A stretch of DNA of 64,000 nt from the NCBI GenBank assembly GCA_943357985.1, contig CALRGR010000003.1, positions 6,496-70,495 of the forward strand. Direction: 5' to 3'. Positions 4,704-55,287 of this stretch are shown here, one piece after another. Each line of letters starts with the position of its first letter. Within the stretch, counting starts at the first letter, position 1. The position numbers and the translations under genes are program-made. The notes beneath the pieces were generated by a model. The model was given only the letters and a program-made list of their open reading frames with translations, had not been told where the DNA came from and did not search any database. The stretch comes from Candidatus Levybacteria bacterium GW2011_GWA1_37_16 (GTDB lineage: Bacteria; Patescibacteriota; Microgenomatia; Levybacterales; UBA12049).

Positions 4704-6143
4704 ATGAATTTAAATCAATTAACAATTGCAGAAGCAATAAAAGAACTAAAAGAAAAAAAGTTTTCCTCGATCGATATCACAAAAGCTTGCCTTGAGCAAA
4801 TTAAAAAACACAATTATGAGATTAATGCTTTTATAACAGTTGATGAAAAAGGAGCACTTGAGCAAGCAAAGATTGCAGACAAATTAGCCTCGCAAGGGGA
4901 GACCTGGGAGGCTAAACCTTTACTTGGAATTCCAATTGCCCTTAAAGATATTTTTTTGACAAAAGGGCTAAAGACTACTGCCGCCTCCAAGGTTCTGGAA
5001 AACTATATTCCACAATATGACGCAACAGTTACTAAAAAACTAAAAGATGCCGGAGCTGTAATACTCGGAAAAACAAATCTTGATGCGTGGGCACATGGTT
5101 CAAGCGGAGAGAATTCCGACTTTGGTGCGACCAAAAACCCATGGAATAAAGAATACGTTCCTGGAGGCTCTAGCAGCGGCTCTGCTGCTTCTTTGGCTGC
5201 AGACATGTGTCTTGCATCAACAGGAACCGACACAGGCGGCTCTATAAGGCTACCTGCAAGCTTCAACAATCTCGTAGGGCTAAAACCAACTTACGGCAGA
5301 GTTAGCCGTTATGGAATTATTGCCATGGCATCATCCCTTGACACAATAGGACATTTTACAAAAACAGTTGAAGACTCAGCTATTCTTTTAAACGTTACTG
5401 CAGGTTCGGACCCTCTTGATGCGACGACCCCTGGGGTTGAGCCTCAAGATTATACAAAAAGCATTGGAAAAGGAGTAAAAGGATTAAAAATTGGAGTTCC
5501 AAAAGAATACTTTACTGGGGGACTCGATAGTGCAATAAAAGACAAAGTCGAAACAGCAATAAAAAAACTCGAAGAACTTGGAGTTGAAATCGTTGAAATC
5601 TCTCTTCCAAATACTGAATACGCAGTTTCGGTTTATTACATTATTATGTCTTCCGAAGTTTCGTCTAATTTAGCAAGATACGATGGTATCCGATTTGGCA
5701 ATGATCGTTCGAGCTTTGGTGAGGAAGCGAAAAGAAGAATAATGCTGGGAACATTTACATTGTCTACAGGCTACTACGACGCTTACTACAAAAAAGCTAT
5801 GCAAGTTAGGACTTTAATAAAGCAAGACTTTGATAAAGCTTTTGAAAAAGTAGATGCAATTATTTCTCCAGTATCCCCTACGGCTCCATGGAAACTTGGA
5901 GAAAAAGTTAATGATCCGCTGAAAATGTATTTGTCTGATATTTTTACAGTCACTGCAAATTTAGCCGGAATTCCAGGACTTTCTGTCCCCGCAGGTTTTA
6001 TCCGTTCGGCGAGCTCAGGACAAGCAGAATTGCCGGTAGGTATCCAAATATTAGGACCTCAGTTTTCTGAGGAGAAACTATTTCAAATTGGAAACGCATA
6101 CGAAAAATCAACAGATTTTTATAAACAAAAACCAACATTATGA
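4704..6143 (+). CDS. gatA: Glutamyl-tRNA(Gln)/Asp-tRNA(Asn) amidotransferase subunit A (amidase signature family)
   Basis: Amidase signature GGSSSGSAAS and the Ser-cisSer-Lys context. Located between gatC and gatB. Confidence 0.9.
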   Translation: MNLNQLTIAEAIKELKEKKFSSIDITKACLEQIKKHNYEINAFITVDEKGALEQAKIADKLASQGETWEAKPLLGIPIALKDIFLTKGLKTTAASKVLENYIPQYDATVTKKLKDAGAVILGKTNLDAWAHGSSGENSDFGATKNPWNKEYVPGGSSSGSAASLAADMCLASTGTDTGGSIRLPASFNNLVGLKPTYGRVSRYGIIAMASSLDTIGHFTKTVEDSAILLNVTAGSDPLDATTPGVEPQDYTKSIGKGVKGLKIGVPKEYFTGGLDSAIKDKVETAIKKLEELGVEIVEISLPNTEYAVSVYYIIMSSEVSSNLARYDGIRFGNDRSSFGEEAKRRIMLGTFTLSTGYYDAYYKKAMQVRTLIKQDFDKAFEKVDAIISPVSPTAPWKLGEKVNDPLKMYLSDIFTVTANLAGIPGLSVPAGFIRSASSGQAELPVGIQILGPQFSEEKLFQIGNAYEKSTDFYKQKPTL

Positions 6144-7465
6144 AACCCATCATTGGACTTGAAGTACACGTAGAGTTAAAAACCAAGAGCAAAATGTTTT
6201 GCGGCTGCTCTGCGAATTATTTTGGACAGAAACCTAATAGCCATACTTGTCCTGTCTGTTTAGGTCTTCCCGGAGCTTTGCCCGTTCCAAACAAACAAGC
6301 AATTGACTGGTGTATAAAAATAGGGTCGTCTTTAAACTGTGAGATAAGCTCTTTTTCTAAATTCGATAGAAAAAATTATTTCTACCCCGACCTTTCCAAA
6401 GGCTACCAAATAAGCCAATACGACAAACCTTTCTGTGAGAATGGCGAAATTATTTTATCGAATAACAAAAGGATCAGGATTAGAAGAGTTCACATGGAAG
6501 AAGACACAGCCAAATTGATACATCAATTTGAAACTCAAAACTCAAAAGTCAAAAGTCAAAATTACTCACTGGTTGATTTCAACAGAAGCGGCGTTCCACT
6601 TGTAGAAATAGTTACGGAGCCTGATTTTGAAAACGCAACAGAAGTTAAAGAATACTTGCAGAAACTTCAACAAATTGTCCGCTATTTAGAAGTTTCCAAC
6701 GCGGATATGGAAAAAGGAGATATGAGATTAGAACCAAATATTTCCCTCTCTCCCGATGGAAACCTACCGAATTACAAAGTTGAGGTAAAAAACATAAATT
6801 CATTTAGCTTTGTAGAAAAAGCAATTAATTTTGAAATTAAAAGGCAAGGCGAACTTTTAGATAAAGGTGAAACTCCTGCACAGGAAACCAGAGGCTGGGA
6901 TGAAAAAAGCCAAGGAACAAAATCACAAAGACTAAAAGAAGAAGCTAATGATTATAGGTACTTCCCAGAGCCCGACATCCCTCCGATTAAATTTTCTGAC
7001 TTAGAAATAGAAACAATAAAAGGTAGCATGCCAGAACTTCCCCAGCAAAAATTGGAAAGATTCCAAAGTGAATTTATCCTACCCCATTACGACTCGGAGA
7101 TCATAACAAGAGATAAAGTCTTGGCTGATTATTTTGAAGAGACAGTCGAAGTTGGCAAAAAGCATAACATTACACCAAAACAGATTGCAAACACGATTAT
7201 TAATAAGAAAATTAATATCGGAGAAGTTTTGCCTGCAAAACTTATCGAAACGATATTGGAAAGTGGAAAGATTGAGGAAATGTCTGCTGAAAAACTGGAA
7301 GAAAACATATCGGAAGTACTTATAGAAAACCAAAAAGCTGTAGATGAATATAAGGGTGGAAAAGAGAATGCTCTTAAGTTTTTGCTAGGACAAACTATGA
7401 AAAAAATAGGTAAAAAGGTCGATTCAAGCGCAGTAAAAAATGCTATACTAGAAAAGCTAAAATAA
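6140..7465 (+). CDS. gatB: Asp/Glu-tRNA amidotransferase subunit B
   Basis: N-terminal MKPIIGLEVHVEL...CGC motif typical of GatB/GatE, and a C-terminal GatB/YqeY domain. Confidence 0.9.
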   Translation: MKPIIGLEVHVELKTKSKMFCGCSANYFGQKPNSHTCPVCLGLPGALPVPNKQAIDWCIKIGSSLNCEISSFSKFDRKNYFYPDLSKGYQISQYDKPFCENGEIILSNNKRIRIRRVHMEEDTAKLIHQFETQNSKVKSQNYSLVDFNRSGVPLVEIVTEPDFENATEVKEYLQKLQQIVRYLEVSNADMEKGDMRLEPNISLSPDGNLPNYKVEVKNINSFSFVEKAINFEIKRQGELLDKGETPAQETRGWDEKSQGTKSQRLKEEANDYRYFPEPDIPPIKFSDLEIETIKGSMPELPQQKLERFQSEFILPHYDSEIITRDKVLADYFEETVEVGKKHNITPKQIANTIINKKINIGEVLPAKLIETILESGKIEEMSAEKLEENISEVLIENQKAVDEYKGGKENALKFLLGQTMKKIGKKVDSSAVKNAILEKLK

Positions 7466-52497: not shown

Positions 52498-52574
52498 ACT
52501 CGTATTATACCTGTTTAAGCCTCAAAAAGCCAAAATATTGTCAATAAAGTTTACATGGTGTACTCTTAAGTTAG

Positions 52575-53618
52575 ATGAGCCCGCTTGATGAAAATCAACT
52601 TCAGATTGAGATTAAAAAAGAGGGACTGCGCCATATTACGGATGAAATACCCGGCTTTATGAGGCAAAAACTTGGTATAAACTTCACTTATTATGACGAG
52701 GATCTCAAAAGAATAAAAGATAAAGTCGTAATTAGCCGGATTGAGAGCTTAGCAATTCCGCCAGCCTGGAAAAAAGTCTGGATTTGTGCTTCAGAAAACG
52801 GATATCTTCAAGCAACAGGCACTGATGACAAAAGACGTAAACAGTATATTTATCATCCGGAATGGGTAAAAGCAACTCAAACAAGCAAATTTGAAAGACT
52901 GACGGATTTTGGCCTCAGCCTTCCAATAATCCGCTCGAAAATCGATTATGACCTGCACCAAAAAGACATGGATAAGAAAAGAATCCTAGCTACTGTCGTT
53001 TGGTTGCTTGAGAAAACTTTTATCCGCATTGGAAATGAAGAATACGCAAGAAATAATGAAAGCTTCGGGCTAACAACTTTAAGAAACCGTCACGCAAAAG
53101 TAAGAGGAGACCAAATTTCATTTAAATTCATAGGGAAAAGCGGTATTGAGAATGTAATCGAAATATCAAACCCAACAATTGCCAAAACAATCAGAAAATG
53201 TATTGAACTTCCGGGCTACGAGCTTTTTCAATTTATAGATGATAGCGGAGAGCGTCATGTAATTGATTCTGCGGATGTTAACGAATTTTTGAAAGAAATA
53301 ACTAAAAATGAATTTACTACAAAAGATTTTAGAACTTGGGGAGCAACCAATTTATCAGCAAGACACCTTTATAAATTAGGAGGCGCGGAGAGTGAGAAGA
53401 CGATCAAGCAAAATATTATGGACACCATCAAGGAAGTCGCAAGTCAGCTTAACAATACCGTATCGGTTTGTAGAAATTATTACATTCATCCGCAAGTTTT
53501 GAAGAGCTACGTCAAAAAGACTCTAGTTCCCCACTTTGCAGGTTTTGAAAAATCCAGAAAATCAATAAAAGGACTCTCCTGGAACGAAACCGCCCTAATC
53601 AAACTCCTACAAAATTAG
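52575..53618 (+). CDS. Type IB DNA topoisomerase (bacterial/poxvirus-type TopIB)
   Basis: Conserved blocks GLTTLRNRH, KDFRTWGAT and the catalytic Tyr context SVCRNYYIHP. Confidence 0.8.
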   Translation: MSPLDENQLQIEIKKEGLRHITDEIPGFMRQKLGINFTYYDEDLKRIKDKVVISRIESLAIPPAWKKVWICASENGYLQATGTDDKRRKQYIYHPEWVKATQTSKFERLTDFGLSLPIIRSKIDYDLHQKDMDKKRILATVVWLLEKTFIRIGNEEYARNNESFGLTTLRNRHAKVRGDQISFKFIGKSGIENVIEISNPTIAKTIRKCIELPGYELFQFIDDSGERHVIDSADVNEFLKEITKNEFTTKDFRTWGATNLSARHLYKLGGAESEKTIKQNIMDTIKEVASQLNNTVSVCRNYYIHPQVLKSYVKKTLVPHFAGFEKSRKSIKGLSWNETALIKLLQN

Positions 53619-53642
53619 CAATTAGCTCTAAATTCTGCTATA

Positions 53643-54344
53643 ATGGGAACAATGAGAGATTTTAATAGAGGCGGTAACTCGAGACCAAGACGAAGCTATG
53701 ATAATAGAGGATCTTCTGGTGGAAACGAAGAAAGACAAACATTTAAAGCAATATGCGCAGATTGTGGCCGCGACTGTGACCTTCCATTTGAACCCCGTGG
53801 CAACAGACCAGTATATTGCAGAGATTGTTTCAAAAAGCATACACCGGAAGGCTCAAGCGGAGATAGATATGAATCAAGAGGAGATTCCAGAGGGGGTCCA
53901 CGTGAAGATTCAAGGCGATCAGGTGGCGATAGACCAATGTTTAGCGCAGTATGCGACAACTGCGGCAAAACTTGCCAGCTTCCCTTTGAACCAAGACAGG
54001 GAAAAGAAGTTTTCTGCAGTAGATGTTTTGAAGATAAAGAAAAAGGAATAGACATGACGCAAAGAAAAAGCAATAGCAATGGCACGCAAGCACAATCACA
54101 ACCAAACCTTCAAATGGACGCAATAAATGCAAAGCTTGATAAAATATTAAATCTTTTATCCAACACAAAAGCATTAAAAAATGACGAGAAAGCTTCCAAA
54201 GTAGTAGAAGATGAGATAGAACAACTAGTAAAAACAATTAAAGCTGAAAAATCAATCAAACCTAAAAAGAAAGTCAAAGATCCTGAGCAAAGCCGAAGCG
54301 TAGCAGCAGAAACAGAAATTCCAATAGAATCCCCAACGGAATAG
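53643..54344 (+). CDS. RGG/Arg-Gly-rich protein with two repeated CxxC...CxxC zinc-ribbon modules and a lysine-rich C-terminal coiled coil
   Basis: Duplicated module: CADCGRDCDLPFEPRGNRPVYCRDCF and CDNCGKTCQLPFEPRQGKEVFCSRCF. The region is locally GC-rich because of GGN/CGN codons, which produces many spurious overlapping ORFs on both strands. Confidence 0.5.
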   Translation: MGTMRDFNRGGNSRPRRSYDNRGSSGGNEERQTFKAICADCGRDCDLPFEPRGNRPVYCRDCFKKHTPEGSSGDRYESRGDSRGGPREDSRRSGGDRPMFSAVCDNCGKTCQLPFEPRQGKEVFCSRCFEDKEKGIDMTQRKSNSNGTQAQSQPNLQMDAINAKLDKILNLLSNTKALKNDEKASKVVEDEIEQLVKTIKAEKSIKPKKKVKDPEQSRSVAAETEIPIESPTE

Positions 54345-54475
54345 TTATCCTTTTTTATTCTTTTTTAATTTTCCCTGAAGATCATTAAAAAGTTCTTGAG
54401 AAATTTCCCTGGGCGTTAATTTCTTATCTCTAAGGTTTTTAGGGCTGAGAAGTCTTGAAGGTTTTTTCATCGAGA

Positions 54476-54592
54476 TTTAAAAAGGAATATCGGAAGTAGA
54501 ATTTGGGTCCACCTCAAAGGTTTTTCTGTATATGCAAAGCCTGCAATCTTCATAAAGATAAGCAAAGTCGGAAGGTGATAGCTTGTACATAT
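54476..54592 (-). pseudogene. Internally deleted remnant of a paralogue of the Cas4-like nuclease (N-terminal 15 aa fused to C-terminal 22 aa)
   Basis: Translates to MYKLSPSDFAYLYEDCRLCIYRKTFEVDPNSTSDIPF*. Compare the intact gene at 41032-41730: ...QYKLSPSDFKYLWEDCKFC... and ...ETCRLCIYRKSFESIESTTSDIPF*. The DNA is also similar (tgcaggctttgcat...). Confidence 0.6.
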
Positions 54593-54596
54593 TTAT

Positions 54597-54674
54597 GTAT
54601 TACGCCTTTCGACTAGTCCTGAGCGAAGCCGAATGACAAAATCAGAAGGAGATAATTTATACTGTTGCGCCATA
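54597..54674 (-). pseudogene. Second N-terminal fragment of the same nuclease family (MAQQYKLSPSDFVIRLRSGLVERRNT*)
   Basis: Translated by hand from the minus strand. It shares the QYKLSPSDF block with both the intact gene and the adjacent remnant. Confidence 0.45.
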
Positions 54675-54721
54675 AGAGAATAATTATACCACGAAGGAGG
54701 AATTCTGACTAAGAAGTCAAA

Positions 54722-54907
54722 TTATTTCTTGCTAGAATTTTCCACAACTCCAATCTCTCCTAGCGTGAGGTTGTAGAGTTTATAAACCATTTTATCAAGC
54801 TCTGCCTTTAGATCATCATAAACCTCGGGAAGCTTTTTCATTAACTCTAAAGAATCACCTAGATAGAGAGCGAAGTTTTTATCATCATTGAGGAAATAGG
54901 TCTTCAT
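54722..54907 (-). pseudogene. Probable in-frame deletion remnant of an amino-DNA methyltransferase / RM-associated gene (61 aa)
   Basis: N-terminal NFALYLGDSLELMKKLPE resembles the N-terminus of beta-class N6/N4 MTases that normally precedes the S/DPPY motif. It is immediately followed by LDKMVYKLYNLTLGEIGVVE, which resembles the C-terminal ends of RM enzymes. The catalytic core is absent. Confidence 0.4.
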
Positions 54908-54975
54908 TTGTATTAAAATTATACTTCTTTTCCTTACAATTTACTATTCCACTAATATTGACACCTTTTGATCTA

Positions 54976-55005
54976 TTGACAAGAGTGTGTATTGAGTTAT
55001 ATAAT
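54976..55005 (+). promoter_or_regulatory. Consensus sigma70-type promoter (TTGACA-18-TATAAT)
   Basis: TTGACA at 54976-54981, TATAAT at 55000-55005, with a second TTGACA at 54958-54963. Confidence 0.5.
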
Positions 55006-55011
55006 GCTTTT

Positions 55012-55091
55012 TACCTCTAATACGCAAGTGTTAGGGATAGAAAATCTAGCAATAGATTTTCGGCAAAGGGACCCCGCAAGGGGTTTTTTTG
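55012..55091 (+). ncRNA. Candidate small RNA (~80 nt) of unknown family with two GCAA-tetraloop hairpins
   Basis: Lies downstream of the consensus promoter. Internal 9-bp hairpin GAAAATCTA-GCAA-TAGATTTTC. It ends in an intrinsic terminator. There is no plausible CDS; the listed 78-aa ORF 54992-55228 runs across the terminator. Confidence 0.35.
55069..55091 (+). terminator. Rho-independent terminator (GGACCCC-GCAA-GGGGT followed by T7)
   Basis: GC stem with a GNRA loop and a run of seven T's. It may also serve the convergent ftsI gene weakly from the other strand. Confidence 0.55.
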
Positions 55092-55287
55092 TGCCTACTT
55101 TTCTGTCCTTTCGTTCCGGCGAAAGAACGAAAGCCTCTCTTGCCAGTGAAGCCGGACTATTTTTACTCCGCTCGCTGATCGGGTTATTTCACCCCCTCCA
55201 TCGACAGGTTTGCGAGGAATCCCCCTGATAGCTCGCTACATAAAAAAATTAACGTCCTAATGCTTCAAGGCAAGAATAAGAAGAATA

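Follow-up and report, generated by a model that had tools for sequence, protein, structure and literature searches.

The small CxxC-x17-CxxC proteins A00184 and A01980 of Methanosarcina mazei have been purified, shown to bind zinc by inductively coupled plasma mass spectrometry (ICP-MS) and detected by proteomics (PMC12704099). They are the only members of their domain family for which experimental data were found in the literature; no papers were retrieved under the family's Pfam, TIGRFAM and InterPro identifiers, nor on Arg-Gly-Gly (RGG) zinc-finger proteins in Patescibacteria. Here, we describe a gene encoding the same annotated domain in Candidatus Levybacteria bacterium GW2011_GWA1_37_16, located on the plus strand at 53643..54344 of a 64,000-nucleotide stretch of contig CALRGR010000003.1 (the whole analysed stretch, hereafter the window). 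The annotated domain is what the window protein has in common with the M. mazei proteins, which are archaeal and are compared with it by domain annotation alone.

Eukaryotic RNA-binding proteins also pair small zinc fingers with RG/RGG linkers, as in FUS, EWS and TAF15, which carry a RanBP2-type finger, and in CNBP, which carries CCHC knuckles. The window protein appears similar to these by design, since small Cys-rich fingers alternate with Arg/Gly-rich disordered linkers in an arrangement suited to multivalent binding. There is no homology, and the folds differ, being zinc ribbon or knuckle in the eukaryotic proteins and a predicted treble clef here; furthermore, the window protein contains only two RGG triplets, and its linkers are balanced by Asp and Glu. 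Our analysis places the gene in a known domain family of uncharacterised function, as a new member and not as a new kind of system. We give about an even chance to the protein being a free-standing multivalent binder of nucleic acid, more likely of RNA, a reading drawn from its architecture.

Reading frame and start codon

The open reading frame (ORF) reported in the initial annotation, 233 amino acids long from its first ATG, is a genuine coding sequence, as indicated by the ORF listing, Pfam and NCBIfam matches, homologues and substitution bias. Compared with an 80%-identical relative (protein P0002, locus L083), 32, 29 and 72 differences fall on the first, second and third codon positions, respectively, and the codon changes comprise 49 synonymous and 39 non-synonymous ones. 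This coding-type bias towards the third position, together with the recovery of 126 homologues, establishes 53643..54344 (+) as a real gene. The true start is probably the ATG at 53652 and not that at 53643, because MRDFNR is the N-terminus in homologues; the product would then comprise 230 amino acids opening with MRDFNR. Residues are numbered below from the first ATG.

Domain family and its distribution

The protein matched the Pfam family PF23477 (zf_Tbcl_2, 'Probable treble clef zinc finger') with 107.2 bits against a cut-off of 27 (E 3e-31) and the corresponding NCBIfam family TIGR04272 ('CxxC-x17-CxxC domain-containing protein') with 106.8 bits against a cut-off of 36. Both profiles aligned in two stretches, with the copies at residues 31-66 and about 97-132. 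Besides scores above the cut-offs, the protein has CxxC pairs exactly 17 residues apart and a treble-clef topology in the AlphaFold2 (AF2) prediction. Its likeness to the family thus covers the Cys spacing, an end-to-end match of the module, the predicted topology and a small, multi-copy, stand-alone architecture. It differs from the family median by a short Lys tail and an acidic extension, both of which are common to its closest relatives (P0002-P0009). Among 62 diverse domain segments, all matched PF23477, and all other zinc families remained below threshold.

The 126 homologues are all 130-310 residues long, with PF23477 as the sole domain and, in a few, an overlapping PF13451 match. A HMMER search with the domain profile returned 7,221 clusters (50% identity) at E <= 1e-3, including 4,146 at E <= 1e-10. 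The best 150 of these 7,221 matches are all 129-339 residues long and contain 2-6 domain copies, often joined by GDRGG-type linkers. GDRGG repeats occur in some relatives, e.g., P0121, and AKKA-type tail repeats were seen in P0123.

A scan of one genome per GTDB species found a relative in at least 517 genomes, the majority of them Patescibacteria, and 80 loci were kept for neighbourhood work. Names of Patescibacteria or the Candidate Phyla Radiation (CPR) are attached to 47 of the 80 loci (Collier-, Woese-, Uhr-, Buchanan-, Falkow-, Sacchari-, Gracili-, Peregrinibacteria and others). A further 27 (e.g., L003, L004, L006 and L009) carry bulk third-party titles of metagenome-assembled genomes, 'uncultured Gammaproteobacteria/Pseudomonadales', as labelled in the records; three loci are labelled archaeal, and three are assigned to other bacteria (Nitrospirota, Flavobacteriaceae and Alphaproteobacteria). 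The non-CPR labels on loci with clear CPR-type homologues look unreliable or mis-binned. In Collierbacteria RIFOXYD2_FULL_45_13 (L012), an apparent second family member lies about 1 kb downstream of the first (5965-6560; 7618 onward).

The initial annotation had named a widely conserved ribosomal or housekeeping zinc-ribbon protein as the identity that would overturn its reading. The family is indeed widely conserved, but it is no known ribosomal or housekeeping family: no match of either kind was found, as NCBIfam and Pfam give the CxxC-x17-CxxC domain alone. The zinc-finger protein likewise had no PHROGs or PADLOC match that would point to a phage or defence origin, and five family loci were found among 2.9 million IMG/VR viral contigs.

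Conserved design and predicted structure

The conserved design was derived from counts over 120-211 homologues, with n = 198 for the finger modules. Family proteins open with the motif M-(R/G)-(D/N)-F-N-R, which is followed by Arg/Gly-rich disorder with a median net charge of +4. One finger is present in 42 of 120 homologues and two in 78 of 120, and a third Cys is conserved in 190 of the 198 modules. The linker has a median length of 24 residues, contains 22% Arg and 0% Lys, and bears a net charge of +1. A helix motif, Q-L-x-x-I-N-A-K-L-D-K-I-L, was detected in 97 of 120 homologues; beyond the helix come a variable acidic stretch and then a Lys-rich tail, the last 35 residues having a median of 29% Lys and a median net charge of +9. 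The median isoelectric point (pI) of the family is 9.3. Overall, the family is a large CPR/Patescibacteria-wide group of more than 7,000 clusters with a modular design (fingers, Arg-only linkers, helix, Lys-only tail), and it merits experimental attention.

The window protein follows this order, with all of its elements encoded on the plus strand. Residues 1-30 (53643..53732) form an N-terminal segment that is rich in R/G/S/N/D (73% of residues), holds the family motif as M-R-D-F-N-R and is predicted to be disordered (predicted local distance difference test, pLDDT, < 50). The first zinc-finger module, residues 31-66 (53733..53840), covers PF23477 positions 1-36 of 37 with a pLDDT of ~93; its predicted metal-binding residues are C38, C41, C59 and C62, its extra conserved Cys is C45, and the model places a beta-hairpin at 34-37/44-47 and a helix at 60-66. 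The inter-finger linker, residues 67-96 (53841..53930), is 77% R/G/S/D/N and predicted to be disordered (pLDDT < 50 for residues 72-93); it is Arg-rich, Lys-free and charge-balanced (net charge -1), with one RGG triplet and a di-RG motif. The second module, residues 97-132 (53931..54038), corresponds to the second PF23477/TIGR04272 stretch and has a pLDDT of 90-95, with C104, C107, C125 and C128 as predicted metal-binding residues, C111 as the extra conserved Cys, strands at 100-103/110-113 and a helix at 126-135.

Downstream of the fingers, residues 154-176 (54102..54170) are predicted as an amphipathic helix carrying the family motif I-N-A-K-L-D-K-I-L (pLDDT 65-86). In the family alignment, N162, K164, L165, D166, I168 and L172 are invariant or nearly so; the helix presents a hydrophobic stripe (M158, I161, L165, I168, L172) and a conserved polar face (N162, K164, D166, K167). 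The C-terminal part, in which the initial annotation had placed a K/E-rich coiled coil, contains 32% Lys plus Glu, and this single helix is the one predicted there with fair confidence. Residues 200-212, KAEKSIKPKKKVK (54240..54278), constitute a Lys-rich patch, a shortened form of the tail in which most family proteins end, and an acidic end comes after it; the patch's counterpart in the alignment consensus is KKxKxKKxxxKK.

AF2 modeling, performed with a 29-sequence alignment, predicted both fingers with pLDDT > 90, and beyond them only helix 154-176 was predicted as ordered. In each finger the first CxxC sits in the turn of a beta-hairpin and the second at the N-terminus of a helix. The low predicted template modelling score (pTM 0.27) indicates independent modules resembling beads on a string. 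The predicted finger fold is a treble clef rather than a two-knuckle zinc ribbon, so that the term 'zinc ribbon' used previously is imprecise, given the Pfam description of a probable treble clef and the helix that begins at the second CxxC in the model. A classical zinc ribbon was also rejected at the profile level, since the Pfam ribbon families scored below threshold (e.g., zinc_ribbon_6, best E 8e-4, 15.5 bits vs 27).

The two C-x2-C-x17-C-x2-C modules had been recognised in the initial annotation and are present at residues 38-62 and 104-128, each with the third Cys of a CxxCxxxC pattern and an LPFEPR motif. A regular-expression search over all six frames of the window found these two modules alone. 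The spacing originally given for them needs a small correction: one residue separates the third Cys from LPFEPR, and exactly six residues precede the second CxxC. Their description as near-identical does not hold, as they are 50% identical (17/34) and no repeat is detectable between them at the DNA level. Finger 1 is closer to finger 1 of other proteins than to finger 2 of the same protein; taken together, these three observations imply that the module duplication is ancient.

The linkers had also been described as RGG/RS-rich. They are of low complexity and rich in R/G/S, but they do not form a canonical RGG box. An RGG box (tri-RGG or di-RGG) is defined by at least two RGG triplets spaced 0-4 residues apart. 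In the window protein, the two RGG triplets lie at residues 9 and 83, accompanied by a single di-RG motif (RGDSRG), and the assignment as an RGG-box protein was rejected on this spacing. The linkers contain 12 Arg and no Lys against 11 Asp plus Glu.

Promoter and leaderless geometry

At 53615..53644 (+), a consensus scan detected a sequence resembling a promoter, TTAGCA-18 nt-TATAAT, extended by TG. The -10 box of this element overlaps the first ATG (53643) and ends 7 nt before the ATG at 53652. The promoter block is conserved: L083 matches it at 92% over 39 nt, and the locus of a 62%-identical relative (protein P0005, locus L084) does so at 85% over 55 nt.

The same arrangement recurs in the family: a -10-like hexamer ends 5-9 nt before the ATG in 41 of 76 loci, with a sharp maximum at 7 nt (24 loci, including 19 that have the TG extension; the background is about 1-3 per position). 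A Shine-Dalgarno-like core was found in only 2 of the 76 family loci. Flanking genes show a weaker peak, with 116 of 574 at 5-9 nt versus an estimated ~45 expected (background ~9 per position), and 10 of 48 of the window's own genes have a -10 box at this distance. This geometry suggests that the mRNA of the zinc-finger gene is leaderless or near-leaderless. By the same token, family genes would usually be monocistronic with leaderless mRNAs, and leaderless mRNAs may be common in these Patescibacteria-like genomes. Such promoter geometry bears on translation start in these organisms.

Adjacency to topoisomerase IB

The gene upstream, at 52575..53618 on the plus strand, encodes a bacterial type IB topoisomerase (TopIB; PF01028 and PF21338). 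As previously noted, the zinc-finger ORF follows it directly, starting 24-33 nt past the TopIB stop on the same strand; together, the two plus-strand genes interrupt a minus-strand division and cell wall (dcw) cluster. This position had led to the suggestion that the two proteins are partners, which the comparison with other genomes contradicts. A tblastn search with the window TopIB found no TopIB copy less than 6 kb from the homologue in any of the 80 other loci. No fusion to TopIB was seen among the 126 homologues and the best 150 domain matches listed, nor any fusion to another enzyme, helicases included; both lists are dominated by multi-copy small proteins, so rare fusions may still exist.

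The locus of the 80%-identical relative (L083) records how the adjacency was lost in one lineage. There, the zinc-finger gene is found at the equivalent chromosomal position; it diverges from the same Mur ligase gene (440 aa), and only 261 bp lie between the two. Three pieces can be recognised in these 261 bp: upstream sequence of the Mur ligase gene in common with the window (90% identical over 136 nt), what is left of TopIB, namely its last 33 codons (DNA identity of 77% across 77 nt; 58% by tblastn, E 0.001), and the conserved promoter block. The remnant, at 5775-5876 of L083, corresponds to 53520-53621 of the window, and the L083 lineage has lost about 1 kb that covered TopIB. It follows that the common ancestor possessed TopIB and that the deletion came afterwards, sparing the zinc-finger gene and its promoter. 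In the locus of the 62%-identical relative (L084), the zinc-finger gene follows a Mg-chelatase/ComM-like gene and retains the same promoter block, with no TopIB remnant. As judged from these sequence comparisons, the TopIB adjacency is a local accident that entails no functional coupling of the zinc-finger gene to TopIB, and a tempting but wrong link is thereby removed.

Genomic neighbourhood of the family

To describe the neighbourhood of the family, 981 flanking ORFs from the 80 loci were clustered, and 139 immediate neighbours were scanned with Pfam. The largest cluster, a generic ABC ATPase, was present in 18 loci and rarely adjacent. No conserved operon partner was found, and no Pfam family exceeded 7 of the 139 immediate neighbours. 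The commonest neighbours were ribosome-associated or translational GTPases (RsgA/MMR_HSR1-type and EF-Tu-type), beta-CASP RNA-specificity metallo-beta-lactamases and ABC ATPases; two DEAD-box helicases were found among the immediate neighbours. A beta-CASP gene is divergently adjacent in six loci, and an EngB-like GTPase gene lies directly downstream in three. These syntenies are lineage-specific and at most hint weakly at RNA or ribosome biology.

Possible function

The generic nucleic-acid-binding role put forward in the initial annotation remains the most plausible reading of the architecture. In the mechanism that we propose, two independently folding treble-clef fingers would each bind one zinc ion, presumably through four Cys, and the fingers, the cationic N-terminus and the Lys tail or patch would contact nucleic acid. 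The conserved helix could mediate self-association or docking to a conserved partner. Its own promoter would drive transcription of the gene into a monocistronic mRNA, probably one without a leader, and a candidate role for the product is that of an rRNA or ribosome-associated chaperone. We favour RNA over DNA as the ligand, at roughly even chances for the former and a clearly smaller one for the latter, because the combination of fingers with RG linkers is typical of RNA-binding proteins, because the neighbours lean toward RNA functions and because the set of ribosome-biogenesis factors in Patescibacteria is about half its usual size (PMC12641178), so that lineage-specific factors could find a place.

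Several observations weigh against binding of RNA, or of nucleic acid in general. The Arg-rich linkers are charge-neutral polyampholytes with two RGG triplets only and need not bind RNA, and the window protein has a short Lys tail and an acidic end, with a net charge of ~0 over its last 76 residues. Tails rich in Lys, of the family's type, are more familiar from histone-H1-like proteins that bind DNA. RNA-related neighbours are only slightly enriched, and both common descent and the translation-heavy gene content of reduced genomes confound this enrichment. Searches of the PDB with the whole protein and with domain profiles retrieved no solved-structure relative by sequence (best E 0.15-0.35), and all Foldseek matches, including those to ribosomal zinc proteins, had E > 1. 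In a plain Cys4 zinc site, the conserved fifth Cys (190/198 modules) would be without a function. Finally, nucleic-acid binding is, for all family members, a reading of their architecture.

A broader proposal is that CPR bacteria at large express the family abundantly, from leaderless mRNAs, as a factor associated with RNA or ribosomes, i.e., a multivalent and possibly condensate-forming RNA chaperone; we regard this as speculative and rather improbable. If true, such a factor might make up for Patescibacteria having only about half of the ribosome-biogenesis factors (PMC12641178) and would constitute a lineage-specific core component of the translation apparatus that escaped annotation. More generally, a core factor binding RNA, ribosomes or the nucleoid would help to explain how these reduced genomes cope with few canonical RNA chaperones and biogenesis factors.

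Among the other functions considered, an architectural protein of the nucleoid, whose fingers and H1/Hc1/HupB-like Lys tail coat or bridge chromosomal DNA in CPR bacteria, is unlikely, yet it is the strongest competitor. Most family members end in long K/A/V/P-rich tails with the Lys content and charge given above, a polycationic Lys/Ala/Pro/Val-rich C-terminus of the kind known from Hc1 and mycobacterial HupB; the high median pI and the stand-alone, widely distributed gene would likewise suit an abundant structural protein. The window protein itself, however, has a much reduced tail, a short Lys patch before an acidic C-terminus, and belongs to no common sequence family with Hc1 or HupB. Pfam and NCBIfam detected no homology to known nucleoid-protein families, the neighbours lean to RNA and translation rather than to DNA functions, and the adjacency to the one DNA enzyme, TopIB, is not conserved. 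More doubtful still is a protein-protein adaptor or chaperone-like factor whose fingers and helix bind protein clients or a conserved machine, as in DnaJ, ClpX, McsA or DksA, with nucleic-acid binding being incidental. Small Cys4 fingers, including treble clefs, often mediate protein contacts, and the conserved, exposed polar face of the helix (N162, K164, D166, K167) suggests a specific partner. The CxxC-x17-CxxC spacing also equals that of the DksA/TraR fingers, and weak Pfam matches to zf-dskA_traR, HscB_4_cys and ZZ were seen. All of these matches are below the curated thresholds, no conserved neighbour indicates a partner, and a basic N-terminus and tail combined with up to six tandem fingers on RG-rich linkers fit nucleic-acid binding better. 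The DksA/TraR C4 zinc finger (PF01258) was specifically rejected, as it reached 12 bits vs 24.9 over the last 10 residues only and matched 3 of 62 modules with E >= 0.015.

The conserved third Cys gives each module five Cys (C-x2-C-x3-C ... C-x2-C), which might ligate an iron-sulfur (Fe-S) cluster or serve as a thiol switch. This redox reading is very improbable: the Fe4S4 domain of molybdopterin oxidoreductases (PF04879), which matched 15 of 62 modules, scored 20.2 bits against a cut-off of 22.7 and was rejected, having the CxxCxxxC pattern alone in common. The predicted geometry is that of a compact treble clef with four converging Cys, and zinc was present in the archaeal members after purification from E. 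coli (PMC12704099), though an Fe-S cluster could escape notice when a protein is purified aerobically. The least probable of all, and barely credible to us, is an accessory factor of the adjacent TopIB, for instance a zinc-finger partner serving in DNA targeting or regulation. Its nearest precedent is YacG, a small Cys4 zinc finger that inhibits DNA gyrase. YacG does appear among the many small zinc fingers in the Foldseek output, though without significance (E ~4), and there is no sequence match. The close same-strand spacing of the two genes would suit such a partnership, as would their adjacency in the ancestor shared with the L083 lineage, of which the stub survives. Against this stand the absence of TopIB near the homologue in the 80 other loci, the loss of TopIB from the 80%-identical relative with retention of the zinc-finger gene and promoter, the different context of the 62%-identical relative and the possession by the zinc-finger gene of its own conserved promoter block. 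Moreover, the family exceeds 7,000 clusters, whereas the distribution of bacterial TopIB is sporadic. Free-standing binding of nucleic acid remains the reading that we prefer.

Local composition and overlapping ORFs

The zinc-finger ORF has a guanine-cytosine (GC) content of 0.405 against a window mean of 0.370, with 0.445 in its first 400 nt and 0.351 in the remainder. It had been proposed as the most GC-rich stretch of the window; in a sliding-window check, its best 200-nt window (0.505) ties with 55040-55239 and is below 5081-5280 (0.52), and at 500 nt the region ranks about eighth. By codon position, the GC content of the ORF is 0.49, 0.56 and 0.29 for positions 1, 2 and 3, respectively. 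The explanation by GGN and CGN codons was half right: Gly is encoded by GGN (19 codons), but Arg is encoded mostly by AGA (15 of 22) and by CGN in 6 of 22.

An excess of spurious ORFs had been noted as well and is real, since the mean depth of ORFs of at least 50 amino acids is 3.26 compared with 1.47 window-wide, placing the region in the top 0.03% of 702-nt windows. Both the GC rise and the shadow ORFs are by-products of Gly (GGN) and Arg (AGA) codon usage. What had been termed a compositional island is therefore a mild effect of amino-acid composition and not a foreign island. A horizontally acquired GC island was considered and rejected, as the rise is limited to the Gly/Arg-rich first 400 nt and to codon positions 1 and 2, and the 80%-identical relative has the gene at the same chromosomal spot.

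Neighbouring gene debris and a candidate small RNA

The plus-strand block at 52498-55287, which comprises TopIB, the zinc-finger gene, gene fragments and a candidate small RNA, splits the dcw cluster, with mraZ, rsmH, an ftsL-like gene and a penicillin-binding protein (PBP) gene on one side and three Mur ligase genes and murA on the other. Gene debris was observed on the minus strand at 54345-54910, in the space that separates the zinc-finger gene from the PBP gene. A 61-aa ORF at 54722..54907 (-) resembles type IIG restriction-methyltransferases, but solely at their very C-terminal end (PADLOC, E 3e-5). The peptide YKLSPSDF recurs in two adjacent short ORFs, 54477..54590 and 54593..54673 (-), which look like duplicated pieces of a single gene since lost.

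Further along, a perfect sigma-70 consensus promoter, TTGACA-18-TATAAT (12/12), was found at 54976..55005 (+). The region 54976-55255 (+) that it opens also contains a terminator-like hairpin at 55063..55092, followed by a GC-rich stretch (0.505). It had no Rfam match at E <= 1 and was absent from all other fetched loci. RNA from this region has a predicted folding energy of -82.2 kcal/mol, far better than shuffled controls (z = -5.0). We consider it a candidate for a structured small RNA that would converge on the 3' end of the PBP gene.

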